From: Dermatophilaceae bacterium
GTDB taxonomy: Bacteria > Actinomycetota > Actinomycetes > Actinomycetales > Dermatophilaceae
Assembly: GCA_035448065.1 (NCBI GenBank)
Contig: DAOTIG010000002.1
Location: forward strand, 234 to 64,233
Direction of reading: 5' to 3'
DNA length: 64,000 nt
The position numbers were made by a program, and so were the translations under genes. This document shows positions 1 through 64,000 of the stretch, in pieces. Numbering within the stretch: position 1 is the first letter of the stretch; every line of letters starts with the position of its first letter. The notes beneath the pieces are model-generated. The model was not told where the DNA came from, searched no databases, and worked only from the letters and a program-made list of their open reading frames with translations.

Positions 1-1050
1 CAGCCGCTCCGCGCTCCCCCGAGCGGGCGCGGTGCCGGCCAGCAGCAGCGCGTCGACGAGCCCGGCCACCCCGGTGCCGAGCGAGCAGTCGCCCAGCCCG
101 TCGCCCGGCGCGCCATCGAGCCGCTCACGCCGGCCGAGCCCGACCCCGCGCTCGTCGCCACCGGCCTCCCCCGTGAGCCGATCCACGGCCTCCTGACACC
201 GCCGCACCCCCTCGTCGGCCTCGCGCGCCAGCCGCTCCCCCATGGCGGACAGCGCGCCACCTCCGTGCCGCTCCCGCTCCCCCCGCGCCAGCTCGGCCAG
301 CCGCAGCCGCACCGCCGTCGCCCCCGCGACGCCGTGCGCCCAGCCGATCGGCACGTCCGACCGGCCCTGCAGGCAGCTCGCCTCCCAGTCGAGGCCACGC
401 TCGATGAGCTCGCCGATCGGCTGCAACGGCAACCCGTCCGACGCCTCCGCGAGGGCCAGCACGACCCCGCTCGTGCCGTCCCGCACCCCACACTGCGGCG
501 CCGGATCCCACTCGTGCGGGTCCGTCGCGTCCGCCCATCCCCAGCCGACCTCCCGCGGCCGCGCCCCCCGGGCGACGAGCCGCACCAGCGCCGGATCGGG
601 GTCGGCGCCGCACCGCACCTGTGCGAGCAGCACGCCGGCAGCACCGGCACCGAGATCCGCGCCACGCGGCATACTCGTCGGCTCGTCCACCCCCAGACCG
701 CACGCATGCCGCGCGACCCGCACGCCGGCCGCGCCGGTGAGCAGGCCCGACTCGTCCACCACCCCGATCCGGTATGCCGCCCGCTCACCCGCCGCGCGCA
801 GCGCACCGTCGTCGAGGGCTCGCCCGAGCGAGGCCAGCGCCCACGCCGCGCCCGCCCAGCCTCCCGTGAGCCCGCTGCGCTGGTGCTCCGACGGCTCGGC
901 GCCTGGCCAGCCGTCCGACTGCACCATCGCCACGAGCGCCCCCATCGCTCGTTCGGCGCACCGCAGAGCCAGCTCCGTGCCGGTCCCGTCCTGCACGTTG
1001 TCTCGCACGTGGTTTCGCCCTCCAGTGCCATCGCCTCGACGCGACGACAT
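1..1050 (-). CDS. LanC-like (lanthionine synthetase C-like) protein, partial; 3' end runs off the left window edge
   Basis: Absent from the ORF track because it has no in-window stop. My own minus-strand translation from the ATG (complement of 1048-1050) gives MSSRRGDGTGGRNHVRDNVQDGTGTELALRCAERAMGALVAMVQSDGWPG...SGLTGGWAGAAWALASLG...SGLLTGAAGV...DGTSGVVLAL...GWAHGVAGATAV...CSLGTGVAGLVDALLLAG. It is open for all 350 codons with high GC3. The repeated Gly-rich motifs, including GWAHGVAG, fit the LanC alpha/alpha-toroid pattern. Confidence 0.6.
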   Translation of the reverse strand, partial: MSSRRGDGTGGRNHVRDNVQDGTGTELALRCAERAMGALVAMVQSDGWPGAEPSEHQRSGLTGGWAGAAWALASLGRALDDGALRAAGERAAYRIGVVDESGLLTGAAGVRVARHACGLGVDEPTSMPRGADLGAGAAGVLLAQVRCGADPDPALVRLVARGARPREVGWGWADATDPHEWDPAPQCGVRDGTSGVVLALAEASDGLPLQPIGELIERGLDWEASCLQGRSDVPIGWAHGVAGATAVRLRLAELARGERERHGGGALSAMGERLAREADEGVRRCQEAVDRLTGEAGGDERGVGLGRRERLDGAPGDGLGDCSLGTGVAGLVDALLLAGTAPARGSAERL

Positions 1051-1228
1051 AGAGATGGAGCAGGTCCGACCTGTCCTGATACATCGGACTCGCCCTCGTC
1101 TGCTCGTTCACCCGGCCCGACGGCGGCGGCCGAGGTATCTGGCGTGGTCAGCAGCGCCTCCTCCCGCACAAGGACCACTCGCCAATAGGCTTGGTCCGAC
1201 ATTGCGCTCCCCAGTGAGGTCACCCCCG

Positions 1229-2896
1229 ATGAAGCCCACGCCCCCGTCCCGATCGCAGTCGGCTGCCGGCCGACCGGCGAGCCGCCGCCGAGCGTCGGCC
1301 GCGCAGCCCGACGAGACCGCCCGCACCCCGGTCGCAGCCGTCTCGACCCAGCTCGCGCAGCTCTATGGCGCCCGCTCGCTCGACCCGGTGTGGGCGATGC
1401 GCCTGGCCGACGGTGCGGCGCCGCAGTCGACGGTCTACGTCGGTGACCGGATGCTCGTGCGTGGCGCGCCCGGCCGGGACCTCGAGGCCTTCACCGAGCT
1501 CACGACGATCGCCGACGAGATCGGCGTGACGGTGACCCGGGTGCCGATGCCCGGCACCAAGGGCCTGCCGAGCGACCTGCACCCCGACGCGGCCCGGATC
1601 GTCCAGGAGCACTGGGTCGAGGCGGTCCGGCTCGACCCGGCCAAGGGCAGCCCCTCGCTGCCGGTCGACGCCTGGCCGGTGCTGCGCACGGTGCAGGACC
1701 GGGCGACGAGCGGGCTCACCCTCGGGCTCGACCATCTGCTCGCGTCCGCCCCGGCGATCTCGGGCACCCCGTACTGGTCAGGCACTCCCTATTGGTCCGG
1801 CACCCCGTACTGGTCAGGGACTCCCTACTGGTCCGGCACCCCCTACTGGTCGGGCACCCCGGCCTCCGAATACGGCCGCACCGGCATCGGCGGCCGGCAA
1901 CCCGTGAGCGTCGTGCTCCCCGACCCGGCCCGCAGCGCCGCACCGGTCGCTCGCCGGCCGGTCGTCGCCGTCCCCGACACCGGCCTCGGCACCCACCCCT
2001 GGTTCCCGCGCGGCGGCACCGCGACCAGCCAGGTCCGCTTCGCCGGCACCCTGCTCGGGCTCGACGGCCCGATGGGCCGCGACTTCCGCCGGCCGGTGCG
2101 CAACCCGCTCGACCCGGTCATCGAGCCGGATGCCGGGCACGGCACCTTCATCTCCGGCATCGTCCGCCAGCTCTGCCCGCAGGCCGAGATCCTCGCCATC
2201 CCGGTCATGGGCTCCGACGGAGTCGTGCCTGAGAGCCTGCTCGTCAACACGCTCGCCCTGCTGCTCGCCCGGCACGTCCAGGCCCTGCGCACCGGCGCGA
2301 CCGACGGCCTGCTCGACGTCCTCTCGCTCTCGCTCGGCTACTACCACGAGCAGCCCGGCGATGCGGCGATGGACGGCCCGCTCGGCTCACTGCTGCGGGC
2401 CTACGGCGAGCACGGCGTCGCCGTCGTCGCGGCCGCAGGCAATGCGACCAGCCTCGCCCCGATGTATCCCGCCGCCCTCGCGGCCCAGGTCACCGGCTTC
2501 GCGCGCGACCGGGTGCCGTTGGCCAGCGTGGGCGCCACCAACCCCGACGGTGAGACGGTCGCCTTCTTCAGCAACGCCGGCGACTGGGTGAGCACCCACC
2601 GACCCGGGTCGCTGCTCGTCAGCACCTTCCCGACCGACGTCACCGCCTCCTCCCAGGCCAGCGCCCGGGTCGACTACGGCGGCCGCACGCGGACCACCCC
2701 CGACCCGGACGACTTCTCCGGCGGCTTCTGCACGTGGAGCGGCACCTCGTTCGCCGCCCCCGTGCTCGCCGGCGAGATCGCCGCAGCCATCGCCGCCGAC
2801 CCCGACGCGGCGACCGTCGACCAGGCTGCGGCAGTCGCCCGCGGCCGGCGCGCCGTCTTCGGCGCGGTCACCGAGTGGAAGAAGGTCCCCCAATGA
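1229..2896 (+). CDS. S8 (subtilisin-like) serine peptidase with no signal peptide and an internal GTPYWS x5 repeat
   Basis: C-terminal two-thirds of ORF 242..2896. The catalytic triad motifs are VAVPDTG (Asp), GHGTFISG (His) and GTSFAAP (Ser). I chose the ATG at 1229 because the 242-1228 part of the ORF overlaps the better-supported minus-strand LanC-like gene. The N-terminus MKPTPPSRSQSAAGRP is not hydrophobic. Confidence 0.8.
   Translation: MKPTPPSRSQSAAGRPASRRRASAAQPDETARTPVAAVSTQLAQLYGARSLDPVWAMRLADGAAPQSTVYVGDRMLVRGAPGRDLEAFTELTTIADEIGVTVTRVPMPGTKGLPSDLHPDAARIVQEHWVEAVRLDPAKGSPSLPVDAWPVLRTVQDRATSGLTLGLDHLLASAPAISGTPYWSGTPYWSGTPYWSGTPYWSGTPYWSGTPASEYGRTGIGGRQPVSVVLPDPARSAAPVARRPVVAVPDTGLGTHPWFPRGGTATSQVRFAGTLLGLDGPMGRDFRRPVRNPLDPVIEPDAGHGTFISGIVRQLCPQAEILAIPVMGSDGVVPESLLVNTLALLLARHVQALRTGATDGLLDVLSLSLGYYHEQPGDAAMDGPLGSLLRAYGEHGVAVVAAAGNATSLAPMYPAALAAQVTGFARDRVPLASVGATNPDGETVAFFSNAGDWVSTHRPGSLLVSTFPTDVTASSQASARVDYGGRTRTTPDPDDFSGGFCTWSGTSFAAPVLAGEIAAAIAADPDAATVDQAAAVARGRRAVFGAVTEWKKVPQ
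1763..1852 (+). repeat. Five tandem 18-bp units encoding GTPYWS, followed by a partial sixth (GTP)
   Basis: The units are ggcaccccgtactggtca / ggcactccctattggtcc / ggcaccccgtactggtca / gggactccctactggtcc / ggcaccccctactggtcg. The peptide is identical in all five and the DNA differs only at synonymous sites. Confidence 0.95.
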
Positions 2897-3477
2897 GCAC
2901 CGGCACCCTCGCCGACCGCGCGGCCGCGGCCTTCGCGGCATACCGGTCCGGCGACGAGCAGCGGATGGGTGAGCTGGTCGACCTGCTCACCCCGATCCTC
3001 TGGCACACCGCCCGCAGCCAGGGCCTCGACGCGAGCAGCGCCGAGGACGTCGTGCAGACCGCGTGGATCCGGCTGGTCGAGCGGGCCGGCAGCGTCCAGG
3101 ATGCGCAGGCCGTCCTCGGCTGGCTGGTGACGACGGTGCGCCGCGAGGCCTGGCGGGTCGGCCGCAAGGACGGGCGGGCCGCGCCCACCGACGACGTGCC
3201 CGAGCCCGAGCATGAGGCGCCCCGGCAGGCCGAGCTCGACCCCGCCGTCCTCGCCGTCCTCCGCGACGACCAGCGCACCCTGTGGCGGCACGTCCAGGCG
3301 CTCGGCGCGCGCTGCGCCGCGCTGCTGCGACTCGTCGCCTTCGTCGACCGACCCGACTATGCCGCCGTGTCCGACGCGCTCGGCATGCCGATCGGCTCGA
3401 TCGGACCCACCCGCGGCCGGTGTCTGGCCAAGCTGCGGACCGCCCTGCTCGCCGACCCCGCCTGGAGCACCCGATGA
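2893..3477 (+). CDS. ECF-type sigma-70 family RNA polymerase sigma factor
   Basis: MSTGTLADRAAAAFAAYRSGDEQRMGELVDLL...DVVQTAWIRLVE (region 2) ...DYAAVSDALGMPIGSIGPTRGRCLAKLR (region 4 HTH). Its ATG overlaps the S8 stop as ATGA (2893-2896). Confidence 0.85.
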   Translation: MSTGTLADRAAAAFAAYRSGDEQRMGELVDLLTPILWHTARSQGLDASSAEDVVQTAWIRLVERAGSVQDAQAVLGWLVTTVRREAWRVGRKDGRAAPTDDVPEPEHEAPRQAELDPAVLAVLRDDQRTLWRHVQALGARCAALLRLVAFVDRPDYAAVSDALGMPIGSIGPTRGRCLAKLRTALLADPAWSTR

Positions 3478-4010
3478 GCGACGACCAGAGCCCTGCCGAC
3501 GCCTCCGGCGACAGCCCGCAGCTGCTCGCGCTGGCCGCCGAGCCGATCGACGCCATCGACCTCGAGCTGCTCGCCGCGATGCGCGAGGTCTACTCCCGCA
3601 TCGACCCGGTGCCGGGCGGGCTCACCGACCGGATCAAGTTCGAGCTCACCCTCGCGGCCCTGCACGCCGAGGTCGCCGAGCTGCAGCACGTCTCGCTCGC
3701 CGGCGTCCGCGACGAGGCCGCGCACTACACCCCGACCGAGTCGGTGACCTTCACCAGCAGCCGGCTCAGCCTCATGGTGACCCTCGGACCCGGTCGTGAG
3801 GAGGCACCCGACACGGTGCGGGTCGACGGGTGGGTCACCGGCGGCACGGTCACTGTCGAGCTGCGGATCGGTGACGAGAGCCGGCTGGCCACGCCCGACG
3901 AGGACGGCCGCTTCGTCATCACCGACGTCCCGCACGGCGCCGCCCGCTTCGTGCTGCGCCCCGTCGACGACGTCGAGCGCCCGGTCATCACCCCGGTCGT
4001 CGAGATCTAG
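3474..4010 (+). CDS. Hypothetical protein, possible sigma-factor partner; C-terminal CarboxypepD_reg-like beta-sandwich
   Basis: ATGA overlap with the sigma gene stop (3474-3477). Sequence: MSDDQSPADASGDSPQLL...VRVDGWVTGGTVTVELRIGDESRLATPDEDGRFVITDVPHG. No TM segment and no zf-HC2 motif seen. Good GC3. Confidence 0.5.
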   Translation: MSDDQSPADASGDSPQLLALAAEPIDAIDLELLAAMREVYSRIDPVPGGLTDRIKFELTLAALHAEVAELQHVSLAGVRDEAAHYTPTESVTFTSSRLSLMVTLGPGREEAPDTVRVDGWVTGGTVTVELRIGDESRLATPDEDGRFVITDVPHGAARFVLRPVDDVERPVITPVVEI

Positions 4011-4103
4011 CTCGGTCGACGCGCCCCGCGTCGAGCCCGAGCCCGCACCAGCCGCACGAGCCACCACGAGCCCCCAGGAGCCGCCTCGCCAGCCCGCACC
4101 GGT

Positions 4104-6758
4104 ATGCCGCGTGGCCCGCACCCGGCCGGTGCCGACGGGGTGGGTGCGGATGACGCTGCGCTCGAGCAGGTGGCCACCCTGCACCGACGGGCCGTCGAGG
4201 CGATCGAGCAGCACCGCGTCGACGACGCCGGGCGGCTGGTCGACGAGGGGCTCGAGCGACTGGCCCGGCTGGTCTCGGCCGACTCGGCACGGGCGCGCGA
4301 GCTCGAGGCCCGGCTCACGCTGAGCCGCAGCTGGGTGGTGGCCGAGCGCTCCGGACCCACCGCCGGCTTCGCCGAGCTCGATCGGGCCCTCGCCCTGGCC
4401 GAGGCGGCCGGTCTGCCGGGGCTGGCGGCCCTGTGCCACAACCAGGCCGCGATCGCTCTCGGCCGGATCGGCGACCTCGGCGGTGCGCTCACCCGGATGC
4501 GCCTCGCCGAGCCCGGCCTGCCGCTGCTGCCGGAGGCCGACCAGGTGCGGATCCTCGTCAACCGCGGCACCCTCGCCCTGCACCTCATGCAGCTCGACGA
4601 TGCCCGGGCCGACCTCGACCGGGCCGTCGAGCTGGCCCACGCGCACGGCCACACCGCCAACGAGTTCATGGCCCGGCACAACGCCGGCTACGTCGAGTTC
4701 CTCCGCGGGGACCTGCCCGCGGCCCTGCGGCTGATGGCCGAGGCCGATGCGATGCCCGTCGACGTGGCGCGCGGGGTGAGCCGCCTCGACCGCGCCCGCG
4801 TGCTGCTCGAGGCCGGCCTGCTCACCGACGCGGCCGCCGGGCTGCGTGAGGCGGCCGACCTGCTGGCCGACAGCCCGCAGGACCTCGCCGAGACCGAGCT
4901 CGACCTGGCCCGCGTCACCTTGCTCCTCGGCGATCCGGCTGCAGCACAACGACTTGCGGCCACTGCGCGACGTCGCTTCCGGGATCGCGAGGCCGGCTCC
5001 TGGCGCCGGCAGGCCCAGCTCGTCGAGCTCGAGGCGGTCGCGCTCGATCACGGCGACGGCAGCCGATCCCGGCGCACGGCCCGACTTGCCGAGGCCCTCG
5101 GCACGGCGGCGGCCGCTCACGACGAGGAGCACCTGGCCCGCCGGGCCGCGCTGGTGAGCGCCGATGCGCTGCTCGACCTCGGCGACCGGGAGGGGGCGCT
5201 CGCGGCATACCGGACGGCGGCGGGCTTGCACCGCTCGGGCTCGCTCGCCACGAGGCTGCACGTGCGCCTCGTCGGCGCCCGGCTCGCGGACACCAACCGC
5301 CGAGCCGGCGCGATCCTCGCCGCCGCCGCCGACGACCTCGCCCGCGCGCAGCACCGCTCGGCGAGCCTCGACCTGCGCACGGCGATGGCGGTGCACGGCA
5401 GCCGCCTGGCCGCCACCGACCTCGCGCTGGGGTTCGAGAGCCGTTCCGTGGCAAGCCTGTTCACCCGCAGTGAGCGATGGCGCGCGGTGTCCGACCGGGT
5501 GCCGGTGGTCCACCCGCCGCCCGACCCGCGGTTGGCCGACCTGCTCAGCCGCCTTCGGCGGGTGCGCGAGGACCTGCGCTCAGCGCCGCCCGAGGCCCAC
5601 CCGGGGCTGCGTGCCTCCGCAGCCGCGCTCGAGAGCGAGGCGCGGGCGCTCACCTGGACGACCGCCGCCAGCGCGAGCGGCGACGGCTCCCCCACGCGCA
5701 CGGTCCGGTATGCCGCGGCGCTCGCCGCCGTCCGGGAGCGCGAGTGCGAGCTGGTGAGCTATGTGCCGCACGGGTCCGAGCTGCACGCCGTGCACCTCTC
5801 GGCGCGCGGCGGACGGGCGGTCCGGATCGGTCCGGTGGCCGACATCGCGGCGCTCGTGCAGCGAGTCCGGGCCGATGTCGAGGCGGCGGCCCTGCCGGTG
5901 CCGACCGCGATGCGGGCGGCGATCGAGGCGAGCCTGCAGCATGGGCTCGCCCAGCTCGACGCCGCCGTGCTCGGGCCGCTGCGCGGGTCGGACAGCGCGG
6001 GTGGCCCGGGTGGCCGAGGCGGCTCGCGTGGTGCTCAGCGCGGCGCCGGCCTGCTCGACGGCCGGCTGGTCGTCGTGCCCAACCGCACCCTGGCTGCGGT
6101 GCCGTGGGGCATGCTGCCGAGCCGGCGCGGCCGGCCGACGACGGTGGCCCGCACCGTGACCGCGTGGTCCGCTGCGCCGGCCCGACCCGTGCTGCCCCGT
6201 CCGGCGGGCCCCCGGGTGGTCGCCGTGGCCGGGCCTGACCTCGACGACGCCGACCTCGAGGTGGCCGAGGTCGCGCAGGCCTGGGGCGGTGTGGCGATGC
6301 CGGCGGCCCAGGCGACGAGGGCGGCCGTGATGGCGGCGCTGCCCGGCGCCGATCTCGTCCACCTGGCCGCCCATGGCACCCATCAGCACCAGAGTCCGCT
6401 CTTCTCGACGGTGCGGCTGGCCGACGGGGCGACCTTCGCCCACGAGCTGCCGATGGCCGGGCTGGCGGCATCCCACGTCGTGCTCGCCGCCTGCGAGGTG
6501 GGCCGCGCGACGATCCGCCCGGGCGACGAGTCGCTGGGGCTGACTGCTGTGCTGCTGTCCCTCGGGGTCCGCTGCGTCGTGGCCCCGGTGAGCCGGATCC
6601 CCGACGGCGTCGCGCGGGAGGCGATGGCGGCATACCACCGGCTGCTCGCGGACGGCCACGACGCGTCGAGCGCACTCGCCGAGGCGACCGCCGACCTCCC
6701 GACCGTGGCCCGCGCCTTCACCTGCCTCGGCACCGACTGGCGCGCGAACCCGGACTAA
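4104..6758 (+). CDS. TPR-repeat / CHAT-domain (caspase-like) protease
   Basis: 884-aa ORF. The N-terminal two-thirds is helical and Ala/Leu/Arg-rich, TPR-like. The C-terminus has the CHAT His-Cys dyad context: DLVHLAAHGTHQHQSPLFSTVRLADG and HVVLAACEVG. The start is uncertain because in-frame GTG codons lie shortly downstream. Confidence 0.8.
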   Translation: MPRGPHPAGADGVGADDAALEQVATLHRRAVEAIEQHRVDDAGRLVDEGLERLARLVSADSARARELEARLTLSRSWVVAERSGPTAGFAELDRALALAEAAGLPGLAALCHNQAAIALGRIGDLGGALTRMRLAEPGLPLLPEADQVRILVNRGTLALHLMQLDDARADLDRAVELAHAHGHTANEFMARHNAGYVEFLRGDLPAALRLMAEADAMPVDVARGVSRLDRARVLLEAGLLTDAAAGLREAADLLADSPQDLAETELDLARVTLLLGDPAAAQRLAATARRRFRDREAGSWRRQAQLVELEAVALDHGDGSRSRRTARLAEALGTAAAAHDEEHLARRAALVSADALLDLGDREGALAAYRTAAGLHRSGSLATRLHVRLVGARLADTNRRAGAILAAAADDLARAQHRSASLDLRTAMAVHGSRLAATDLALGFESRSVASLFTRSERWRAVSDRVPVVHPPPDPRLADLLSRLRRVREDLRSAPPEAHPGLRASAAALESEARALTWTTAASASGDGSPTRTVRYAAALAAVRERECELVSYVPHGSELHAVHLSARGGRAVRIGPVADIAALVQRVRADVEAAALPVPTAMRAAIEASLQHGLAQLDAAVLGPLRGSDSAGGPGGRGGSRGAQRGAGLLDGRLVVVPNRTLAAVPWGMLPSRRGRPTTVARTVTAWSAAPARPVLPRPAGPRVVAVAGPDLDDADLEVAEVAQAWGGVAMPAAQATRAAVMAALPGADLVHLAAHGTHQHQSPLFSTVRLADGATFAHELPMAGLAASHVVLAACEVGRATIRPGDESLGLTAVLLSLGVRCVVAPVSRIPDGVAREAMAAYHRLLADGHDASSALAEATADLPTVARAFTCLGTDWRANPD

Positions 6759-6842
6759 CCGCCTCCCCGGGCACTTCTGCGCGACACGCCGGCAGAATGC
6801 CGCGACACGCCGTGGCCAGCCGACGCGAGCACCCGCCCCGGC

Positions 6843-7595: not shown

Positions 7596-7625
7596 CGCGC
7601 GAACGGGGTTGGTTCACAAGGGAAT

Positions 7626-8558: not shown

Positions 8559-8725
8559 CGCGGGCAGGCTCCCAGTGTCGAAGGGTCGGCAGTCGGCCGA
8601 GGATTCCCCCTAACGAACCCCCGCCGAGTTATGCCTATTCCAACACAGGGTTATCGGTCGCCTCAAACTGCCCTGGTGCTGCGGGGACCAGCGGCGTCAG
8701 CCGGCCCCGCGGCATACCCGTTGGG

Positions 8726-9049: not shown

Positions 9050-9142
9050 CGACGACTCCTTCAGGTATGCCGCGCGGCCCTCGGCCGCTCCGGGCGTGCG
9101 GTCCCGCCACTGTAACCCCGGGCGCGGGAGGTTTCCCTTGGC

Positions 9143-9238: not shown

Positions 9239-9249
9239 CAGTAGACAAG

Positions 9250-55282: not shown

Positions 55283-55314
55283 GGCATACCCAATCTTGTT
55301 GTGTGCGAGCGGTG

Positions 55315-56301: not shown

Positions 56302-56302
56302 G

Positions 56303-57475: not shown

Positions 57476-57645
57476 AGCCACTCCTTGTCGTCCCGGGGTC
57501 GCCGGGCCGGTCAGTCGCCGGCGCGCTGGCCGGGATCGCCGGACGGTCGCCGCGCGGGCGTCGTTGCCGCTGGTTGGGGGCCACCCTAGCCGCAGACCAG
57601 GGTGAATCTCACGCCCGACCCAGCGCTCGTGCGAGTCTGGTCGGT

Positions 57646-60600
57646 ATGCCGCGCACCACCGCACCGCTCGAGCCGGATCCTCGCGAGCCCGAACCGGCGC
57701 GCCCCCGACCCGCGCTTCCCTCCTCGCTCGCTCCTGTCAACAGCTCGCGAGGCGAGCGCGCCTGGGCTCTTGAGCAGCGGTTCACCGCCGACGCGGGGAC
57801 GCACTACCTCACCGGCATCCAGGCGCTGGTGCGGATGCTGCGCGATCGGGCGGTGCTCGACCGGCATACCGGATTGTCGACCTCGACCTTCGTGTCCGGC
57901 TACGAGGGCTCACCACTCTCGGGCTACGACCAGGAGCTGGCCCGACGTGCCGGGCTCTTCGCCGGGCTCGACCTCGTGCACCGGCCGGGGCTCAACGAGG
58001 AGATCGCGGCGACCTCGGTGATGGGCACCCAGGTCGCCGCCACCGTCGCGACGCTGCGGCCCGACGGGGTGGTCGGCTATTGGTACGGCAAGGCGCCCGG
58101 CCTGGACCGCGCGACCGACGCGCTGCGACACGCCAACATCATCGGCACCTCGCCGACCGGAGGCGCGGTCGCGCTGGTCGGCGACGACGCGGGGGCCAAG
58201 TCCTCGACCGTGCCGTCCGGCTCGGAGCTCGCCCTCGCCGATCTCTGGATGCCGACCCTCGTGCCCGCGGACGCGCAGGACGCGCTGGACCTCGGCGTGC
58301 ACGCGGCGCTGCTGTCCCGCGCGAGCGGGCTCTGGGCGGCACTGAAGATCAGCGTGCCGATGGCCGACGGGGCCAGCACGGCCCAGGTTGGTCTCGACCG
58401 CTTCGACGCGGCGCTCGCGGCCACCGCCGGGCTCGGGCCGAGCCGGCACCGGCCGACGGCTGCGGTCTTCGGGCGACCGCTGGCCGAGCTCGAGCGGTCG
58501 CTGCACGACGTGCGCCTGCCCCGAGCGGTCGACTACCTGCGCCTCGCGGGGATCAACCGGATCGAGGGCGCCCGGGGCGGCGCGCGCATCGGCATCGTCG
58601 CCGCCGGCACCACCTGGCTCGCTGTGCGAGAGGCGTTGCGGCTGTTGGGAATCCGCGATGAGGAGCTTGGTTCCCGCGGCATCCGGCTGCTCAAGCTCGG
58701 AGCCGTGTGGCCGCTCGAGCCGGGCATCGTCCGCGAGTTCGCCGACGGGCTGGCCGAGATCGTCGTCGTCGAGGAGAAGCGCTCGTTCGTCGAGAGCGGC
58801 ATCCGCGACCTGCTCTACGGCCGGGCCGACGCGCCGGTCGTCGTGGGCCGCACCGACGAGCGCGGAGACCGGCTCTTCACGCCCATCGGCGACCTCGACG
58901 TCGACGCGGTGACGACCGGCCTGGCCTCCCGATTGGGAATGCCGCCCGCACCCTCGGCCGAGCCGATCCGGATGCCCTCGCTGCCGATCACGCCCACGCC
59001 GACGCTGGCCGCCCGCACGCCCTACTTCTGCTCAGGCTGCCCGCACAACACGTCGACCAAGGTGCCCGACGGCACGCTCGTGGGCGGCGGCATCGGCTGC
59101 CATGCGCTCGTGCTGCTCATGGACCCGAAGCAGGTCGGCACGGTCACCGGCCTGACCCAGATGGGCGGCGAAGGCAGCCAGTGGATCGGCATGTCGCCCT
59201 TCGTCACCGAGGGACACATCGTGCAGAACATCGGCGACGGCACCTTCGCCCACTCCGGCTCTCTCGCGGTGCGGGCCGCGATCGCGAGCGGTGCCAACCT
59301 CACCTACAAGCTGCTCTTCAACGGCACAGTCGCGATGACCGGCGGCCAGGACCCGGTCGGCGCGATGACGCTCGATCAGGTATGCCGCGTGCTCCTCGCC
59401 GAGGGCGTCGCCCGCATCGTCGTCACCGGCGATGACGTCGAACGGCTCTCTGCCGCAGGGCTGCCCGCGGGTGTCGACGTCCGCCCACGGGCCGACGTCG
59501 TCGAGGTGCAGCGCGAGCTTGCCGCCGTGCCGGGGGTGACCGTGCTCGTCCACGACCAGGCCTGCGCCACCGAGCAGCGACGGCGGCGCAAGCGCGGCAC
59601 GGTCGCACCGGCCGCGACCAGGGTCTGGATCAACGAGCGGATCTGCGAGGGCTGCGGCGACTGCGGCGAGAAGTCCAACTGTCTGTCCGTGCATCCGGTC
59701 GACACCGCCTTCGGGCGCAAGACGCGCATCCACCAGAGCTCGTGCAACGTCGACGCCTCCTGCCTTGCGGGCGACTGTCCCTCCTTCGTGACCGTTGTGC
59801 CGGGTCGACCGGTCGAGCGGGATCGGGCGGCCGACCTCGCCGACGACGCGATCCCCCCGCCGGTCGATGAGACCGTCAGCGGCGCAGCCGATTTCGCGAT
59901 GCGGATCACTGGGATCGGTGGCACCGGGGTGGTCACGGTGTCGCAGATCCTCGCGACAGCGGCGGTGCTCGAGGGTCGGCATGCCCGGGCGCTCGACCAG
60001 ACCGGCGCCGCGCAGAAGGGCGGCGCGGTCGTCGGCGACGTGCGGGTGACTGCCGAGCCGGTCGAGTGCTCCCCGAAGATCCCGGCGGGTGGCGCCGATC
60101 TCTACCTCGTGTGTGACGAGCTCGTCGGGGCGGACCCGAGAAACCTCGTCGTCGCGTCACCCCAGCGCACGGTGGCGGTGGTGTCCTCGACCCGCACGCC
60201 GACCGGGTCGATGGTCGTCGACACGGGCGTGACCTATCCACAGGCAGATTCGGTGGCCGCTGTGCTCGAGCCGGCAATGCGCCGGACGCTGCGGCTGGAC
60301 CCGGCTGGACTGTCGATGCAGTGCTTCGGGTCGGCGCAGTACGCCAACCTCGTCCTCGTCGGAGTTGCCTATCAGGCCGGAGCGCTGCCGATCGGCGCCG
60401 CCGCGATCGAGCAGGCCATCGAGCTCAACGGCGTGTCCGTGCACGCCAACGTCCAGGCCTTCCGCCGCGGCCGCCAGTCGGTGGCCGACCCGGACTCCTT
60501 AGTGTCGGCAATCGCACTGGCGCACAAGGGGGTCCGGGTTGCCGGGGCCCGCGCTGGTCACGGGAAGCGCGGTGGTGAGCCACCGGCATACCGGAGCGAG

Positions 60601-61227
60601 GCGAGTCTCGCCGAGCTCGTGGCGCACCGGCGCGCGGAGCTGGTCGACTACCAGGACGAGCGCTACGCCGGCCGGTATGCCGCCTTCGTCGAGCAGGTGC
60701 GCGCGGCCGAGTCGGCGGCGGTGCCGGGCTCGGAGCGGCTGGCCCGGGCGGTGGCCCACCACCTGCACAAGCTGATGGCCTACAAGGACGAGTACGAGGT
60801 GGCCCGGCTGGCGACGCTGCCGGAGGTTCAGGCCGAGCTCGCCGACCTCTTCGGCTCGGACGCGCAGGCGTCGGTCATGCTGCACCCGCCGATGCTGCGG
60901 GCGCTCGGGATGCAGCGCAAGCTCGCTCTCGGCGCCGCGGCGCGACCGGTGCTCGAGCGCCTGGCGTCGCTGAAGTCGTTGCGGGGCAGACCGATCGACC
61001 CCTTCGGCAAGGCGCACGTCCGCCGGGTGGAGCGCCGGCTGATCCGCGACTATCACGACACGATCGAGGCCCTGCTGCCGCGGATCAGCCCTGCGACCCT
61101 CGACGCTCTGGTCGAGATCGCCGAGCTGCCCGACCTGATCCGCGGCTACGAGGAGATCAAGCTGCGCACCGTCGAGCGCTACCGCACCGCCCTCGCCACG
61201 GCGCTCCGGGAGCTGCCGACCGAGTAG
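57646..61227 (+). CDS. Indolepyruvate:ferredoxin oxidoreductase family protein (fused IorA/IorB, about 1190 aa)
   Basis: LTGIQALVRMLRD, GYEGSPLSGYD, GDGTFAHSG (TPP), ferredoxin-like CxxCGDCGEKSNC, C-terminal IorB-like ITGIGGTGVVT. Start at the ATG inside a GGTATGCCGC motif. Confidence 0.85.
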   Translation: MPRTTAPLEPDPREPEPARPRPALPSSLAPVNSSRGERAWALEQRFTADAGTHYLTGIQALVRMLRDRAVLDRHTGLSTSTFVSGYEGSPLSGYDQELARRAGLFAGLDLVHRPGLNEEIAATSVMGTQVAATVATLRPDGVVGYWYGKAPGLDRATDALRHANIIGTSPTGGAVALVGDDAGAKSSTVPSGSELALADLWMPTLVPADAQDALDLGVHAALLSRASGLWAALKISVPMADGASTAQVGLDRFDAALAATAGLGPSRHRPTAAVFGRPLAELERSLHDVRLPRAVDYLRLAGINRIEGARGGARIGIVAAGTTWLAVREALRLLGIRDEELGSRGIRLLKLGAVWPLEPGIVREFADGLAEIVVVEEKRSFVESGIRDLLYGRADAPVVVGRTDERGDRLFTPIGDLDVDAVTTGLASRLGMPPAPSAEPIRMPSLPITPTPTLAARTPYFCSGCPHNTSTKVPDGTLVGGGIGCHALVLLMDPKQVGTVTGLTQMGGEGSQWIGMSPFVTEGHIVQNIGDGTFAHSGSLAVRAAIASGANLTYKLLFNGTVAMTGGQDPVGAMTLDQVCRVLLAEGVARIVVTGDDVERLSAAGLPAGVDVRPRADVVEVQRELAAVPGVTVLVHDQACATEQRRRRKRGTVAPAATRVWINERICEGCGDCGEKSNCLSVHPVDTAFGRKTRIHQSSCNVDASCLAGDCPSFVTVVPGRPVERDRAADLADDAIPPPVDETVSGAADFAMRITGIGGTGVVTVSQILATAAVLEGRHARALDQTGAAQKGGAVVGDVRVTAEPVECSPKIPAGGADLYLVCDELVGADPRNLVVASPQRTVAVVSSTRTPTGSMVVDTGVTYPQADSVAAVLEPAMRRTLRLDPAGLSMQCFGSAQYANLVLVGVAYQAGALPIGAAAIEQAIELNGVSVHANVQAFRRGRQSVADPDSLVSAIALAHKGVRVAGARAGHGKRGGEPPAYRSEASLAELVAHRRAELVDYQDERYAGRYAAFVEQVRAAESAAVPGSERLARAVAHHLHKLMAYKDEYEVARLATLPEVQAELADLFGSDAQASVMLHPPMLRALGMQRKLALGAAARPVLERLASLKSLRGRPIDPFGKAHVRRVERRLIRDYHDTIEALLPRISPATLDALVEIAELPDLIRGYEEIKLRTVERYRTALATALRELPTE
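57685..57728. repeat. 44-bp repeat, copy B, inside the N-terminal extension of the IOR-like gene
   Basis: gagcccgaaccggcgcgcCcccgAcccgcgcttccctcctcgct. The shared block gcgcctgggctc recurs at 57758-57769. Confidence 0.9.
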
Positions 61228-61262
61228 CGGAGCCGGGAGGGCGGGGCGCGGCCCCGGTGCGC

Positions 61263-62372
61263 TCAGCGCGGACCGAAGGTGCGGCATACCTCGAGGAAGC
61301 GCGTGTTGGCCTCGGGCTCACCGATGGTGACCCGCACGCCGTCGTCGCCGTAGCGGCGCACCATCAGCCCGGCGGCCTCGCACGCCTCGGCGAAGGCCGC
61401 ACCGTCGGTGCCGATCGGGAACCACACGAAGTTCGCCTCCGACGGAGCCAGCGCCCAGCCCTGCTCGGCGAGCCCGGCCGCCACCCGCTCGCGCTCGGCG
61501 ACGATGTCGCGCACCCGCACCATGAGCTCGTCGCGCGCCTCGAGCGAGGCGATCGCCGCCGCCTGGGCAAGGCTGTTGACGCCGAAGGGGACGGCGGTCT
61601 TGCGCAGCGCCGCCGCGACCGCCTCGTGCGCGACGGCATAGCCGACCCGCAGGCCGGCCAGGCCGTAGGCCTTGGAGAAGGTCCGCAGCACCATGACGTT
61701 GGGGTTGGCCCGCCACACCTCGATGGCGTCGGGAGCGTCGGGGTCCGTGACGAACTCGGTGTAGGCCTCGTCGAGCACGACGAGCACGTGCCGCGGCACG
61801 GCCTGCAGGAAGGCCTCGAGCTCGGCGCGGTGGACGACCGTGCCGGTGGGGTTGTTCGGGCTGCAGACGATGACCACCCGGGTGCGGTCGGTGACGGCTG
61901 CGGCCATCGCGTCGAGCCGGTGCCGCTGCCCCTCGTCGACGGCCACCGGCACCCCGACCGCATCGGCGAGCGCCGCGACGATGGGATAGGCCTCGAAGGA
62001 GCGCCAGGCATAGACGACCTCGTCGCCGGCGTCGCAGGTCGACTGGACGATCTGGCCGAGGATGCCGACCGACCCGGTGCCGACCGCGATGTTCGCCGGG
62101 TCGCAGCCGACGAAGGCCGCGATCGCCGCGATGAGGTCGACCGAGGCCATGTCGGGATAGCGGTTGATCGTGTCGAGCTGCTTGTCGAGGACGACTCGCA
62201 CCGAGTCCAGCGGCGGGAAGGGGTTCTCGTTCGACGACAGCTTGTATGCCGTGACGCCCTCCGGCGCGCGCGCGGGCTTGCCAGGGACATAGGCAGGCAC
62301 TCGGTCGAGGGCGGCCCGCAGCCGCGGGTGCAGGTCGGCGCTGGCAGGGGAGGTGTCGGGGCGCTCGGTCAT
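61263..62372 (-). CDS. Histidinol-phosphate/aromatic aminotransferase (HisC family)
   Basis: LSSNENPFPP, YPD, VCSPNNPTG, FSKAYGLAGLRVGY. Confidence 0.85.
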   Translation of the reverse strand: MTERPDTSPASADLHPRLRAALDRVPAYVPGKPARAPEGVTAYKLSSNENPFPPLDSVRVVLDKQLDTINRYPDMASVDLIAAIAAFVGCDPANIAVGTGSVGILGQIVQSTCDAGDEVVYAWRSFEAYPIVAALADAVGVPVAVDEGQRHRLDAMAAAVTDRTRVVIVCSPNNPTGTVVHRAELEAFLQAVPRHVLVVLDEAYTEFVTDPDAPDAIEVWRANPNVMVLRTFSKAYGLAGLRVGYAVAHEAVAAALRKTAVPFGVNSLAQAAAIASLEARDELMVRVRDIVAERERVAAGLAEQGWALAPSEANFVWFPIGTDGAAFAEACEAAGLMVRRYGDDGVRVTIGEPEANTRFLEVCRTFGPR

Positions 62373-62432
62373 AGGGAGAATCTAGGGGACGACCGGGACG
62401 CGGTGCGAGGTTAGCCGTGCGACGATGCCGCC

Positions 62433-62828
62433 ATGCGCAGCCTCGTCGTCAAGATCGTCGTCAACGCCGCGGCCCTGTGGGTCGCCGCCCTCGTCGTGCC
62501 CGGCATCCACATCGGTCAGGGTGCGCAGTGGACGGCGACCTTCACGACCGTGGTGCTCGTCGCGCTCCTCTTCGGCGTCGTCAACGCCCTCATCAAGCCG
62601 GTGGTGCACTTCTTCGCGACGCCGTTCATCTGGCTGACGCTCGGGTTGTTCACGATCGTCGTCAACGCGCTCATGCTCCAGCTCACGTCGTGGCTCTCCG
62701 GCAACCTCGGGCTGGCCTTCCATGTCGACAGCTTCTTCTGGAGCGCCGTGCTCGGGGCGCTGCTCATCAGCGTCGTGTCGATGGTGCTGCACGGCGTCAT
62801 CCCGGAGAAGAGCCGCAACCGCGACTGA
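62433..62828 (+). CDS. Phage_holin_4_2 / DUF360 family membrane protein
   Basis: MRSLVVKIVVNAAALWVAALVVPGIHI...VVLVALLFGVVNALIKPVV...LGLFTIVVNALMLQLTSWL. Confidence 0.75.
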   Translation: MRSLVVKIVVNAAALWVAALVVPGIHIGQGAQWTATFTTVVLVALLFGVVNALIKPVVHFFATPFIWLTLGLFTIVVNALMLQLTSWLSGNLGLAFHVDSFFWSAVLGALLISVVSMVLHGVIPEKSRNRD

Positions 62829-62909
62829 CCGCCCGCCCACAACACCCATCGGGTATGCCGCGGAAGGTTCCGGTTGTCCTGTGCCACAACGGCACCCGAG
62901 ACTGCTGGG

Positions 62910-63899
62910 GTGAGCTTCCAGGGGGCCGACACCGAGGGCATGCGGACCTGCGCGAGAGAGCTGCGTGCGGGTGGCACTGAGCTCGACACCCTCGGCGCTC
63001 GGCTCAGCGAGGCGGTGACCGGGCTGCCCTGGCAGGGGGCCGACGCGGCCCGCGGCCGGGCCCGCTGGGAGCAGACCGACCGGCCACGGCTGCAGCAGAC
63101 GGCCGAGCTGCTCCGGGCCGCAGCAGAGCTGCTCACCCGCGAGGCCGAGCAGCAGGATGCCGCCTCCAGCGACGGCGGTGGCGCTGTAGGCGCCGGGGCG
63201 CTCACCACGGCCGGCCCGACCGGGCCGGCGCGCAGCGCCGACCCGGGATCCCAGGCGAGCAGCGCGGGCGCGGGCGGCATACCGGCTGGTGCCACGGCGG
63301 ACCCGCCCCGGTCGCTCTGGGAGCGCGCCCGCGAGACCGCGGCCAGGGTCGCCGACGGCCCGGTGGGCGACGCCCTGGGCGCGATGGGCGACGGCATCGA
63401 CAGCGTGCTGGTCGCCGATGCGGTGGCGGTGGGCGGGCAGTACGCCAATCAGCTGGGGCCGACCGCGACGGTGCTCTGGGAGCAGGCCGAGGCGGTCCAT
63501 CTGCCCGGCGGGCTGAGCACGCTCGCCACCGGCATCGGCTATCTCACGACCGGCCTCGACGGGCTCTCGGCCTGGCAGGCGGCCGCCGAGGGCCGCTGGG
63601 ACGGCGCCGTGGAGAAGGGCGTCGCGGCCGGGATCGGCGTGTGGGGGATCGCCGGTGGCGGGCTGCCGGCCGCGGGTGCCGGGCTGGCCTGGGGTGCCGG
63701 CTGGGAGACCGGCGACTGGGCGCGGACCGGCCCGCTGGAGAAGATCGGCTGGAACGACGCCTACCAGAGGGTGATGGCGCCGATGTTCGAGCGCTACGGC
63801 GACTGGGCCCTCCTCTACGCCGTGCAGGGCACCGGCGATGCGAGCCGGCTGTGGCTGCTCGAGCGGCTGTTCGGCAAGCCGGTCAACCCCCAGCCCTGA
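62910..63899 (+). CDS. WXG100-like N-terminal domain fused to a Gly/Trp-rich C-terminal domain (T7SS substrate/toxin candidate)
   Basis: GTG at 62910 ((M)SFQGADTEGMRTCARELRAGGTELDTLGARLSEAVTGLPWQGADAARGRARWEQ). The C-terminus is GIGVWGIAGGGLPAAGAGLAWGAGWETGDW. The track start is 62874. Confidence 0.55.
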   Translation: MSFQGADTEGMRTCARELRAGGTELDTLGARLSEAVTGLPWQGADAARGRARWEQTDRPRLQQTAELLRAAAELLTREAEQQDAASSDGGGAVGAGALTTAGPTGPARSADPGSQASSAGAGGIPAGATADPPRSLWERARETAARVADGPVGDALGAMGDGIDSVLVADAVAVGGQYANQLGPTATVLWEQAEAVHLPGGLSTLATGIGYLTTGLDGLSAWQAAAEGRWDGAVEKGVAAGIGVWGIAGGGLPAAGAGLAWGAGWETGDWARTGPLEKIGWNDAYQRVMAPMFERYGDWALLYAVQGTGDASRLWLLERLFGKPVNPQP

Positions 63900-63919
63900 C
63901 CGACGAAGCAGGTGCCGGG

Positions 63920-64000
63920 TCAGCCGCGGACGCGCAGTGAGCGAGGGTCGTAGCGGGGGCGCAGCGAGCAGGTCACCGGATGGCGCCGCCCGGCGACATC
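63920..64000 (-). CDS. 3' end of an unidentified gene entering from the right edge
   Basis: Own translation gives ...DVAGRRHPVTCSLRPRYDPRSLRVRG*, with high GC3. It is too short to name. Confidence 0.3.
   Translation of the reverse strand, partial: DVAGRRHPVTCSLRPRYDPRSLRVRG

Follow-up and report, generated by a model that had tools for sequence, protein, structure and literature searches.

The stretch analysed here, referred to as the window, comprises 64,000 nt of DNA (72% G+C) from a metagenome organism of the Dermatophilaceae/Intrasporangiaceae, and we compared it with related loci of about 22 kb each. Its genes include two ABC-transporter genes, rtcB, an alcohol dehydrogenase, an acyl-CoA dehydrogenase and a tRNA-Gly(CCC), and throughout the window lies GTATGCCGC, its commonest 9-mer. 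Counting both strands, we recovered 65 exact matches, 33 on the plus and 32 on the minus strand, the same figures as in the original prediction; three of the positions listed there were off (4103 is 4102, 19542 is 19532 and 62862 is 62853), and the others were right. One hundred dinucleotide-preserving shuffles of the window averaged 0.48 matches and never had more than 4, and a third-order Markov model predicts 1.2. A maximal-order Markov model yields 63.4 expected against 65 observed, an uninformative value because the window's 8-mers and 7-mers from which it derives consist almost wholly of copies of the motif.

The composition of imperfect copies reveals the extent of the word. We counted 40 one-mismatch variants of GTATGCCGC, in line with the "at least 15" noted before, and these clustered at positions 1, 2 and 9, with the internal positions 3–8 at background level; the true core is thus the 8-mer GTATGCCG. 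This core occurs 79 times in the window (37 plus, 42 minus), or 1.23 per kb, close to the density of about 1 per kb first proposed; chance expectations for the 9-mer (65 observed) and the 8-mer (79 observed) range from 0.5 to 3.8. The base after the core is C in 65 copies, T in 9, G in 4 and A in 1. Weaker flank preferences extend the word to approximately ATCCG-GTATGCCGC-GTGG, the extended 13-mer CCGGTATGCCGCG occurs 11 times in the window, and flanks are degenerate past about 5 nt. By 8-mer count, 60 copies fall in predicted CDS and 19 in intergenic DNA, where the word is enriched 3-fold. Copies follow one another at essentially random distances (exponential fit, P = 0.62, CV 0.85).

Copies and inverted pairs of the word in the window (signs give the strand; a letter in brackets is the base at position 9)
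Feature	Coordinates	Strand	Detail
Whole window	1..64000	both	79 GTATGCCG, 65 of them GTATGCCGC
Inverted pair 10991+ / 11016-	10988..11027	+	18-bp perfect hairpin, dG -42.8, z -8.5
Inverted pair 35979+ / 36027-	35976..36038	+	long hairpin, dG -63.3, z -6.3
Inverted pair 20261- / 20283+	20261..20291	+	hairpin, dG -24.8, z -3.9
Pair 36925- / 37006+	36922..37017	+	17-nt identical extended arms CACGCGGCATACCGGAT ... ATCCGGTATGCCGCGTG, z -3.5
Inverted pair 666- / 772+	666..780	both	772 copy has 36 nt (97%) in common with the 10991 copy
Inverted pair 17934- / 17996+	17934..18004	both	junction of two ABC-transporter genes
Intragenic inverted pair	12239..12269	both	12239+ GTATGCCGC, 12261- GTATGCCGT
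Intragenic inverted pair 24592- / 24682+	24592..24690	both	alcohol dehydrogenase gene; another copy 24421-
Intragenic inverted pair	60583..60683	both	60583- GTATGCCGG, 60675+ GTATGCCGC
Acyl-CoA dehydrogenase copy, A-Y-A-E	38207..38214	+	orthologue alignment column 365
Second acyl-CoA dehydrogenase copy	37517..37525	+	orthologue alignment column 126
Copy upstream of CHAT/TPR gene, intergenic or 5'-end	4102..4110	+	ATG 4104 possible start codon
Copy in divergent region upstream of 2-oxoacid:ferredoxin oxidoreductase gene	57644..57652	+	ATG 57646 in ORF frame
More 9-mer copies	2935..9726		2935-, 5202-, 5708+, 6627-, 7560+, 7738-, 8709-, 9065+, 9348+, 9493-, 9718-
More copies	12668..19540		12668+(T), 13351+, 15163-, 15544+, 16176-, 16685-(T), 16954+, 19105-, 19532-
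More copies	21640..29173		21640-, 22032+, 22620+, 24986+, 26355-, 26889-(T), 27146+, 27912+(G), 28183-, 29165-(T)
More copies	32907..34739		32907-, 33047+, 34523-, 34731-
More copies	39728..48658		39728-(G), 41959+, 43127-, 45243-, 46851-, 47044+, 47883-, 48650+
More copies	50557..57869		50557-, 51156+, 51328-(T), 53271+, 53615+, 55281-(T), 56697-(T), 57861-(G)
More copies	59380..63282		59380+, 61281-, 62244+(T), 62853+, 63274-

Nine of the ten close pairs (within 130 bp) are inverted, and two of them form very stable hairpins right past stop codons, bearing out the earlier remark on inverted pairs after genes. The hairpin at 10988 lies 29 nt past the stop of gene 10417-10959 and is terminator-like without a U tract; that at 35976, likewise terminator-like, lies 10 nt past the rtcB stop at 35966. 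A third sits directly upstream of the tRNA-Gly(CCC) at 20295-20367, with another copy (20406) downstream of the tRNA, and the arms of the pair at 36922 flank a stop codon (36990) on both sides. Overall, about 5–10% of copies reside within terminator-like hairpins. The ATGs at 4104 and 57646, previously taken as start codons supplied by the word, are both in frame, and their use as starts is a possibility.

Coding copies show that the force acts on DNA rather than on protein, as had been argued. Synonymous shuffles preserving all proteins and per-gene codon usage generated 2.6 ± 1.6 coding copies (maximum 8), compared to 48 observed (25 sense, 23 antisense), and in either orientation, sense or antisense, 24 of the 35 peptide contexts compatible with the word carry it (69%). 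Tyr-Ala is written TATGCC in 30 of 37 cases where the next codon begins with G and in 4 of 24 elsewhere. The predicted Tyr-Ala-Ala and Ala-Ala-Tyr frames and their uncommon codons were both recovered: 18 copies read xxG-TAT-GCC-GCx (YAA) and 19 read GCG-GCA-TAC (AAY), and the rare codons TAT, GCA, GTA and ATA all occur inside the word. GCA accounts for 5% of Ala codons and TAT for 19% of Tyr codons outside the Tyr-Ala context, and 4 of 12 GTA and 4 of 6 ATA codons lie within the word. Orthologue alignments of the acyl-CoA dehydrogenase capture two routes by which coding copies arose. At an A-Y-A-E that is invariant across 38 orthologues, TAT occurs solely in motif-bearing lineages: the window and 10 relatives with the motif use GCG-TAT-GCC-GAG, and Tyr is always TAC in motif-free lineages, a case of the word arising through synonymous change alone. 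At the second site an amino-acid change made the word, M-F-A-A (TTC) in most relatives having become M-Y-A-A (TAT) here and in the related locus L011.

These data bear directly on whether the word might be a by-product without signal, arising from a YAA/AAY preference with ordinary codons, from pieces of a longer repeat or mobile element, or from an assembly artefact. The two peptides are each about 3-fold over-represented and their frames account for 37 of the 48 coding copies; a few intergenic copies also have 36–38 nt of common flank (families D18 and D19); within D18 the copies at 772 and 10991 match over 36 nt at 97%, one of the few longer flank similarities. Nevertheless, copies span five frame/orientation classes plus intergenic DNA, their flanks quickly degenerate, and the same word is present in independent isolate genomes and MAGs. 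Given the synonymous shuffles, the rare codons within the word, the TAT at the invariant A-Y-A-E and the finding that no long repeat family holds the copies, we reject this explanation as almost certainly wrong. What is enriched is a signal in the DNA; neither peptide preference nor codon usage nor a repeat family accounts for it. A directional force on DNA itself spread the lineage-specific recognition word GTATGCCG(C) chromosome-wide, filling nearly all positions where only a synonymous change was needed, as well as some where the amino-acid change was cheap and many sites between genes, and the word was then preserved.

Preservation is evident in orthologues from the related loci L001 and L002, where the proposed comparison with the window found 54% of sites identical relative to 22% of background 8-mers, even though flank divergence around sites (0.26–0.29) exceeds the average of 0.21. 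Conserved sites inside faster-diverging flanks are the pattern reported for the DNA uptake sequences (DUS) of Neisseriaceae, which occupy "permissive locations ... but themselves highly conserved" (PMC2397512). Across relatives, the word itself changes. In the window's clade GTATGCCG occurs 199 times versus 8.9 expected, and Terrabacter, Knoellia and Pedococcus have 34–62 copies. Dialects replace it elsewhere: GGATGCCG in Fodinibacter-like loci (50 versus 5.7 expected), GAATGCCG in a Phycicoccus MAG (24 versus 1.4) and GTATGCGG in three MAGs (24 versus 1.6), with an unrelated word, GCGAAGGGG, in Janibacter and Marihabitans (26 versus 4). Outgroup loci are near background for the word and its dialects. 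These dialects follow relatedness. Strand skew was absent from the window and from 13 related loci, confirming the lack of polarity noted at the outset; the word is therefore not Chi or KOPS. The one phage of the group available for comparison, Tetrasphaera phage TJE1, carries the word twice in 49 kb, a weak comparison because its host may use another dialect.

Until now this genomic signature has been associated with the uptake sequences known from Neisseria and Haemophilus, and the word's features match DUS and the USS of Pasteurellaceae point for point, making it a putative uptake signal. DUS (GCCGTCTGAA and its dialects, read by the minor pilin ComP) is likewise an asymmetric word of 8–12 nt found about once per kb on both strands of coding and non-coding DNA, with highly conserved copies in permissive regions (PMC2397512) and species- or genus-specific dialects that lie one or two bases apart and track phylogeny (PMC3630211). 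USS (AAGTGCGGT / ACAAGCGGT) shares a 9-mer core with weaker flank preferences, a density of about one copy every 1.2 kb, mainly in genes, and a bias towards frames with cheap tripeptides, which are over-represented. In both systems inverted pairs serve as terminators (PMC5217627; bioRxiv 10.1101/2025.10.24.684340), roughly half of DUS/USS lying in terminator-like hairpins (bioRxiv 10.1101/2025.10.24.684340). The present word differs in belonging to a monoderm of the Actinomycetota at 72% G+C, in its unrelated sequence, in having most copies (76%) within genes and not terminators, which sets it apart from DUS, and in one-mismatch variants that seem relatively rarer than for USS. An uptake role for the present word is putative, as would be a receptor of the ComP kind. 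The analogy with uptake sequences drawn in the original prediction thus stands at the sequence level, where no comparison overturned it, with extra support from the dialects and from conserved sites in fast-diverging flanks.

We therefore tentatively favor, at somewhat less than an even chance, the reading that the word serves sequence-specific DNA uptake and spreads as a transfer-biased drive signal. The driving force would most likely be transfer bias. A natural-transformation machine with a sequence-specific DNA receptor, perhaps a ComEA-like protein feeding ComEC or else a Tad-type or competence pilus, would favor word-bearing fragments in binding and import, and RecA-mediated replacement would over-transmit word-bearing alleles in the population. 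Copies would build up to an equilibrium between mutation, drive and cost, at about one per kb and on both strands alike; shifts in receptor specificity would give the dialects of sister genera, and inverted pairs may have been co-opted as terminator-type hairpins. Such a system would work like DUS and USS yet have been invented independently in Actinomycetota. Counting against it, transformation in the known Gram-positive systems shows no preference for particular sequences, and in the literature searched we found no report of such a signal for Actinobacteria, nor of competence, biased uptake or a receptor for this family. The share of copies in terminator-like hairpins, about 5–10%, is also well below the roughly half seen for DUS/USS. 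Depletion in accessory DNA, which is expected of a DUS, does not hold up robustly: the two non-syntenic blocks of the window have 0.50 copies per kb versus 1.43 per kb, but in L001 and L002 the unaligned parts are richer (2.1–2.6 per kb) than the aligned parts.

A protein-binding site under direct selection would account just as well for the near-saturated synonymous sites and the very sharp core. An abundant chromosomal protein (nucleoid-associated, a condensin loader or a ParB-like clamp loader) could keep its sites for chromosome organization and co-evolve with the dialects; background-level internal variants, conservation inside divergent flanks and strand symmetry all agree with this, and inverted close pairs could suit a dimer. 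Even so, we know of no nucleoid protein with about one exact 8–9-mer site per kb, it is hard to see how selection could keep overriding codon bias at 69% of accessible positions when each of the thousands of sites is dispensable by itself, random spacing provides no regular architecture, and phage TJE1, despite its near lack of copies, replicates in a member of the group, leaving this reading unlikely, if still worth serious weight. It can point to HIP1 of cyanobacteria (GCGATCGC), also hyperabundant and argued to act in nucleoid structure (PMC5861425). HIP1 resembles the word as an 8-mer of coding and non-coding DNA that is 15- to 300-fold over-represented, conserved between genomes and without a gene-level function found (PMC5861425), and it has recently been linked to natural transformation, an effect that needs its methyltransferase (bioRxiv 10.1101/2024.09.10.611283). 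A family-conserved methyltransferase could likewise have made the word abundant, either because methylated sites are selected for or because methylation directs a bias in repair, and the single-base dialect shifts would be typical of target-recognition domains. We consider this improbable: HIP1 is palindromic with a known cognate enzyme, and the present word is asymmetric without a known one; one-mismatch neighbours are neither depleted nor enriched; and short-patch repair bias, reasoning from Vsr/Dcm, affects one mismatch type at one position and could not build a 60-fold 8-mer excess.

A comparably slim chance attaches to a "self" signal for a DNA-end-processing or defence nuclease, such as an unpolarized Chi analogue for AdnAB/RecBCD or a switch from degradation to repair, that shields own DNA and exposes foreign DNA. 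Like the Chi of RecBCD/AddAB (5–8 nt), the word is over-represented, taxon-specific, asymmetric and read on DNA, and it is almost missing from TJE1; its lineage-specific variants recall the variation of Chi among taxa (PMC8022716), and HIP1 has been suggested to be partly Chi-like during transformation (bioRxiv 10.1101/2024.09.10.611283). The enrichment of 20- to 60-fold and the density of 1 per kb are nonetheless far above those of 8-mer Chi sites, and terminator hairpins from inverted pairs are no Chi property. All characterized Chi sites are co-oriented with replication, whereas the word's strand ratio is 37:42 in the window, and the 13 other loci are likewise close to 1:1. Polarity also weighs against recognition by an FtsK/TraB-type double-stranded DNA translocase in actinomycete-style conjugation, in which word-bearing segments would be transferred preferentially by the same drive logic through another machine. 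FtsK and Streptomyces plasmid TraB do use a winged-helix gamma domain to read 8-bp words that are not palindromic, the present core is likewise asymmetric and exactly 8 bp long, and the organism is an actinomycete, the group to which TraB systems are specific. Yet KOPS/SRS words are strongly polar, known TraB sites cluster at the plasmid clt locus and number no more than tens on the chromosome, neither reaches one per kb with strand symmetry, and we found no conjugation genes in the 64-kb window, so we regard this reading as more doubtful still.

The 64-kb window contains 65 copies of the 9-mer GTATGCCGC (33 plus, 32 minus), compared with a mean of 0.48 and a maximum of 4 in dinucleotide-preserving shuffles and 1.2 copies expected under a third-order Markov model, bearing out the over-representation claimed in the original prediction. 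It is the top-ranking 9-mer of the window despite a G+C content of 72% and three A/T positions in the word. The maximal-order Markov test suggested alongside that claim expects 63 copies, a circular and hence uninformative result because the sub-words occur almost solely within motif copies. Three of the coordinates first listed for the copies were wrong by 1–10 nt; all others were exact. When all single-base variants were scored, specificity resided in the 8-mer GTATGCCG, present 79 times (37 plus, 42 minus; 1.23 per kb); the expected number of copies ranges from 0.5 to 3.8 across estimates for the two words. Of these 79 copies, 65 have C as the ninth base, 9 have T, 4 have G, and 1 has A. 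Substitutions at internal positions 3–8 remain at background (8 observed, ~11 expected), and the flanks show weak preferences, roughly ATCCG-core-GTGG.

Gene calling by a codon model trained on the window itself gave 60 genes, which cover 92% of its length. Their content is ordinary chromosomal, including ABC transporters, a 2-oxoacid dehydrogenase complex, acyl-CoA dehydrogenase, RtcB, cysteine synthase, and dCTP deaminase, together with one tRNA-Gly, the sole Rfam match. Coding sequences hold 48 of the 65 GTATGCCGC copies (25 sense, 23 antisense) and 76% of the GTATGCCG copies, while the other 17 9-mers lie in the intergenic 8% of the window, a 3-fold enrichment. Given this coding share and the degenerate flanks, REP, BIME, and MITE elements were rejected. 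Repeat searches of the window also disposed of the possibility that the copies are parts of one longer dispersed repeat: no long family contains them, and just two groups of three share 36–38 nt. An RNA-level role was rejected as well, since the copies are evenly divided between sense and antisense and Rfam finds the tRNA alone.

Spacing between copies is approximately exponential (KS p = 0.62, CV 0.85, largest gap 3.7 kb), and nine of the ten neighboring pairs within 130 bp are inverted. The inverted pairs after genes that had been described from the sequence include two intergenic ones that give very stable hairpins just past stop codons. An inverted pair also lies immediately 5′ of tRNA-Gly(CCC), where it forms a hairpin, with one further copy 39 nt 3′ of the gene; the latter is preceded by a GC-rich hairpin and then TTTCC. 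The last T of the actinobacterial −10 box (TANNNT) is conserved. A promoter function with TATGCC as the −10 box, including upstream of this tRNA, was rejected: TATGCC lacks that final T, TAGACT further upstream is the better candidate, and three in every four copies fall inside genes, on one strand or the other. Strand skew is absent from the window and from 13 related loci, no locus departing from 1:1, in agreement with the lack of polarity noted originally; the GC skew of the window is mostly of one sign. Polar signals are therefore excluded, both Chi, for which an orientation bias with replication is absent, and KOPS or other architecture-imparting sequences, for which a strong strand skew, reversing at the origin and terminus, is absent. 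The inverted repeat flanking rtcB, each arm of which has its own small hairpin (CTTCACCC...GGGTGAAG), has no Rfam match; its role may be regulatory, or it may be a mobile feature.

Features of the window with their coordinates
Feature	Position	Context	Details
Terminator-like hairpin from inverted intergenic pair	10988–11027	directly after stop codon	dG −42.8 kcal/mol, z −8.5
Terminator-like hairpin from inverted intergenic pair	35976–36038	directly after stop codon	dG −63.3 kcal/mol, z −6.3
tRNA-Gly(CCC)	20295–20367		
TAGACT −10-like box	~20240	upstream of tRNA-Gly(CCC)	
Inverted repeat	34571–34647 and 36044–36120	flanking rtcB	77 nt, 84% complementary
rtcB	34749–35966		
Gene cluster	1229–6758		S8 peptidase, sigma-70 region-2 protein, small unknown protein, 870-aa TPR + CHAT-domain protein
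S8 subtilase gene	1229–2896		
18-nt tandem repeat	1760–1867	N-terminal part of S8 subtilase gene	~6 copies, codes S-G-T-P-Y-W
First non-syntenic block	29435–33649	absent from syntenic L001 and L002	
Three tandem paralogous ORFs	29472–31239	within first non-syntenic block	period ~630 nt, 68–80% nucleotide identity
Second non-syntenic block	39846–46698	absent from L001 and L002	LuxR-type HTH regulator, 90-aa peptide, membrane proteins, two ABC ATPases

Within genes, the dominant frames of GTATGCCGC are xxG-TAT-GCC-GCx (Y-A-A, n = 18) and GCG-GCA-TAC (A-A-Y, n = 19), and three further frame classes are occupied. TAT is used in 21 of the 24 YAA tripeptides of the window, and 19 of the 22 AAY tripeptides are GCG-GCA-TAC, GCA making up 5% of Ala codons; of the 12 GTA and 6 ATA codons in the window, 4 each fall within motif copies. 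Both tripeptides are ~3-fold over-represented, and thus the proteins have been altered as well. Permuting synonymous codons with each protein sequence and each gene’s codon usage kept yielded 2.6 ± 1.6 CDS copies (maximum 8) compared with the 48 observed. The signal therefore lies in the DNA word and not in the peptide, as originally argued, and a YAA/AAY bias with normal codon choice, named at that time as the scenario that could overturn the argument, is removed. The word occupies 24 of 35 compatible peptide contexts in sense and 24 of 35 in antisense, close to saturation, which together with the permutation null rules out a peptide or codon explanation. When the following codon begins with G and so completes the 8-mer, TATGCC encodes Tyr-Ala in 30 of 37 cases, as opposed to only 4 of 24 otherwise.

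Comparison of 38 acyl-CoA dehydrogenase orthologues locates this effect at single codons. An invariant A-Y-A-E is encoded GCG-TAT-GCC-GAG in eleven motif-bearing lineages, whereas all lineages without the motif use TAC; at another site, a Phe-to-Tyr replacement (TTC to TAT) in the window and one relative creates the word. A Phycicoccus lineage with the variant word GAATGCCG uses rare AAT and GCA codons precisely where its own dialect results. These data firmly show that a directional, strand-symmetric force acts on an exact 8–9-nt DNA word family-wide, with lineage-specific variants, and that it beats GC3 and codon bias where the change is synonymous and shifts amino-acid usage where this is cheap.

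The nearest relatives of the host are Dermatophilaceae/Intrasporangiaceae of the Actinomycetota: its acyl-CoA dehydrogenase shares 82–83% identity with proteins from a Dermatophilaceae MAG and Ca. Phosphoribacter baldrii, 76–77% with Terrabacter, and 70–73% with Knoellia, Pedococcus, Fodinibacter, Phycicoccus, and Janibacter. The same sequence is also present on a metagenome contig in ENA. Related genera carry related variants of the word that track phylogeny, as judged by the identity of this one protein, mirroring the DUS (DNA uptake sequence) dialects of Neisseriaceae (PMC3630211). None of the words was found in one Intrasporangium (I. zincisolvens) and one Oryzobacter locus, and outgroup Actinomycetota (650 kb) carry GTATGCCG at 0.04 per kb. 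Some lineages keep a minority of a neighboring dialect, such as 9 GTATGCCG copies in the GAATGCCG lineage, as expected for a shift of specificity. The Marihabitans asiaticum and Janibacter corallicola loci have no GTATGCCG and instead carry GCGAAGGGG(G), with 26 copies in 34 kb where 4 are expected. Hyperabundant words seem to occur across the family, one word having been completely exchanged for another at least once. Farther afield, six loci (Kribbella and a MAG) have CGGCGTAC / CGCCGTAC as their top 8–9-mers, at 10–17 per 22 kb where ~3 are expected, a milder enrichment that may be codon-driven or another lineage-specific word. The clustered intergenic repeat CGTGATCATGCAGAAGTGCACG of a Kineosporiaceae MAG (locus L047, 1640–1670, 4287, and 8283–8440; 8 copies in 10.6 kb, some tandem or inverted) looks like a REP/MITE-type element and is a phenomenon distinct from the motif.

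Hyperabundant words in the window clade and related lineages
Lineage	Word	Observed	Expected
Window clade (149 kb)	GTATGCCG	199	8.9
Terrabacter/Terracoccus	GTATGCCG, position 9 mostly T	56	2.4
Knoellia	GTATGCCG, position 9 mostly T	62	2.9
Pedococcus	GTATGCCG	34	1.7
Two Fodinibacter-like loci	GGATGCCG	50	5.7
A Phycicoccus MAG	GAATGCCG	24	1.4
Three MAGs (L031, L037, L038)	GTATGCGG	24	1.6
Janibacter and Marihabitans	GCGAAGGGG, unrelated word, both strands	26	4.0

Orthologue alignments of the window with L001 and L002, syntenic loci at ~79% nucleotide identity, show 54% of motif sites unchanged in the other genome compared with 22% of background 8-mers, yet the 30 nt on each side diverge by 0.26–0.29 relative to an average of 0.21. 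In 8 of 22 cases, a non-shared motif site has at least four of its eight positions altered, compared with 14% of differing background windows. A conserved word in a permissive location, with non-shared sites often multiply different, is also what Treangen et al. described for the neisserial DUS, where new copies look too different to have arisen by single point mutations (PMC2397512). Motif density falls to 0.50 per kb in the two non-syntenic blocks of the window, relative to 1.43 per kb elsewhere (p = 0.002), whereas L001 and L002 behave oppositely, their unaligned segments being richer in motif than aligned ones; the lower density in accessory DNA of the window thus does not extend to these two loci. 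The three tandem ORFs of the first block have no Pfam match. The second, with a motif density of only ~0.5 per kb, may be a circular-bacteriocin cluster: its 90-aa peptide weakly matches circular bacteriocins of the uberolysin-like kind (E = 0.006, a score that does not reach the Pfam cut-off), and several of its membrane proteins have no Pfam hits. Tetrasphaera phage TJE1 (NC_019930) contains 2 GTATGCCG and 7 GGATGCCG in 49 kb, a scarcity of GTATGCCG that fits a host-restricted signal, with the qualification that its host may use another dialect. This phage has three annotated methyltransferases and 57.7% G+C, well under the ~70% of the host family. Scanning viral contigs with a 14-mer and an inverted-pair pattern returned only single matches at chance level in unrelated viruses of 40–65% G+C, which are uninformative for phages of this clade, and tblastn with an MFS transporter found no Dermatophilaceae plasmids.

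As judged from its sequence properties, GTATGCCG would be a hyperabundant, strand-symmetric recognition word outside the families of DUS and of USS, the uptake signal sequence of Pasteurellaceae. Among the processes that could maintain such a word, we tentatively rank first an uptake-type, transfer-biased drive acting through a putative receptor, uptake, and recombination, because the uptake bias of DUS and USS in natural transformation is, to our knowledge, the only experimentally established process that gives the full pattern. Like DUS and USS, the word occurs about once per kb, orders of magnitude over expectation, is equally frequent on both strands independent of the direction of replication and transcription, and is imposed on codons and peptides with a bias to cheap reading frames. 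It likewise forms inverted-repeat pairs as terminator-like hairpins past genes, but with a lower share of copies (~5–10%, compared with ~50% for DUS/USS; bioRxiv 10.1101/2025.10.24.684340). DUS and USS are scarcer in recently acquired DNA, prophages, and mobile elements; on this point, the densities of the window word gave a mixed picture. In naturally competent Neisseria, the DUS has a cognate receptor, ComP, and raises binding, uptake, and transformation. The present host belongs to Actinomycetota rather than to Neisseriaceae or Pasteurellaceae, and its word differs in sequence, so that membership of the DUS/USS family proper was rejected and the word would at most be an independent analogue, not a homologue. 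Gram-positive DNA uptake is classically non-specific, and our literature searches found neither competence nor specific uptake reported for this family; these points, the few copies in terminators, and an accessory depletion that did not hold beyond the window argue against the uptake reading.

The sharp core and the conservation would also suit a directly selected site for an abundant nucleoid or condensin-loading protein, which we consider unlikely in view of the random spacing and the sheer number of individually dispensable sites. An unpolarised Chi-like self marker is improbable, as the strand skew is missing. The same low probability attaches to a putative methylation-linked word comparable to the other hyperabundant word, HIP1 of cyanobacteria, which is palindromic and methyltransferase-tied (PMC5861425) and whose function remains under debate, a part in transformation having recently been hinted at (bioRxiv 10.1101/2024.09.10.611283). 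GTATGCCG, however, is not its own reverse complement, which rejects a HIP1-type palindrome, and repair bias alone cannot build an 8-mer; short-patch repair as sole cause was discarded on these mechanistic grounds and on the unremarkable counts of one-mismatch neighbors. A recognition word for a TraB/FtsK-type translocase in conjugative transfer would likewise be asymmetric, 8 bp long, and at home in an actinomycete, yet neither polarity nor clustering was seen, making it highly improbable. By-product explanations were refuted and have a negligible probability.

Full-text literature searches turned up no description of the word, matches being primers and unrelated papers, and no uptake-type or hyperabundant word was found in the literature on Actinobacteria, Tetrasphaera, Micrococcus, or Dermatophilaceae. 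Pursuing the uptake reading, it is possible, if rather doubtful, that Dermatophilaceae/Intrasporangiaceae have a system for sequence-specific uptake of DNA, or another transfer-biased system, whose dialects differ by genus; this would be the first self-recognition signal of DUS/USS type in a Gram-positive phylum, independent of the two proteobacterial cases and presumably relying on an unknown receptor type. Ca. Phosphoribacter and Tetrasphaera are phosphate-accumulating organisms in the wastewater literature, and natural transformation would then be indicated in the family to which these bacteria belong. A 2025 survey finds such sequences established in only two families, the proteobacterial Neisseriaceae and Pasteurellaceae (bioRxiv 10.1101/2025.10.24.684340), and whether they originated by selfish drive or as ‘safe sex’ is still debated (PMC2397512). 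A third, independent case in high-G+C Gram-positives, in which the dialects are clear and the cost to codons and proteins is strong and measurable, would provide a natural replicate for this debate. Matching phylogenetic profiles to the dialects would offer a handle on the putative DNA receptor, and constructs with the right dialect might render these organisms genetically tractable. Should the uptake reading be wrong, a family-wide 8-mer that is enriched 20- to 60-fold and overrides codon bias at ~70% of accessible sites would still have to be explained, as has been the case with HIP1 for 25 years.

The window also contains a gene cluster that combines an S8 peptidase, whose gene carries a tandem repeat, with a CHAT-domain protein; CHAT proteases are frequent members of signalling or defence modules.
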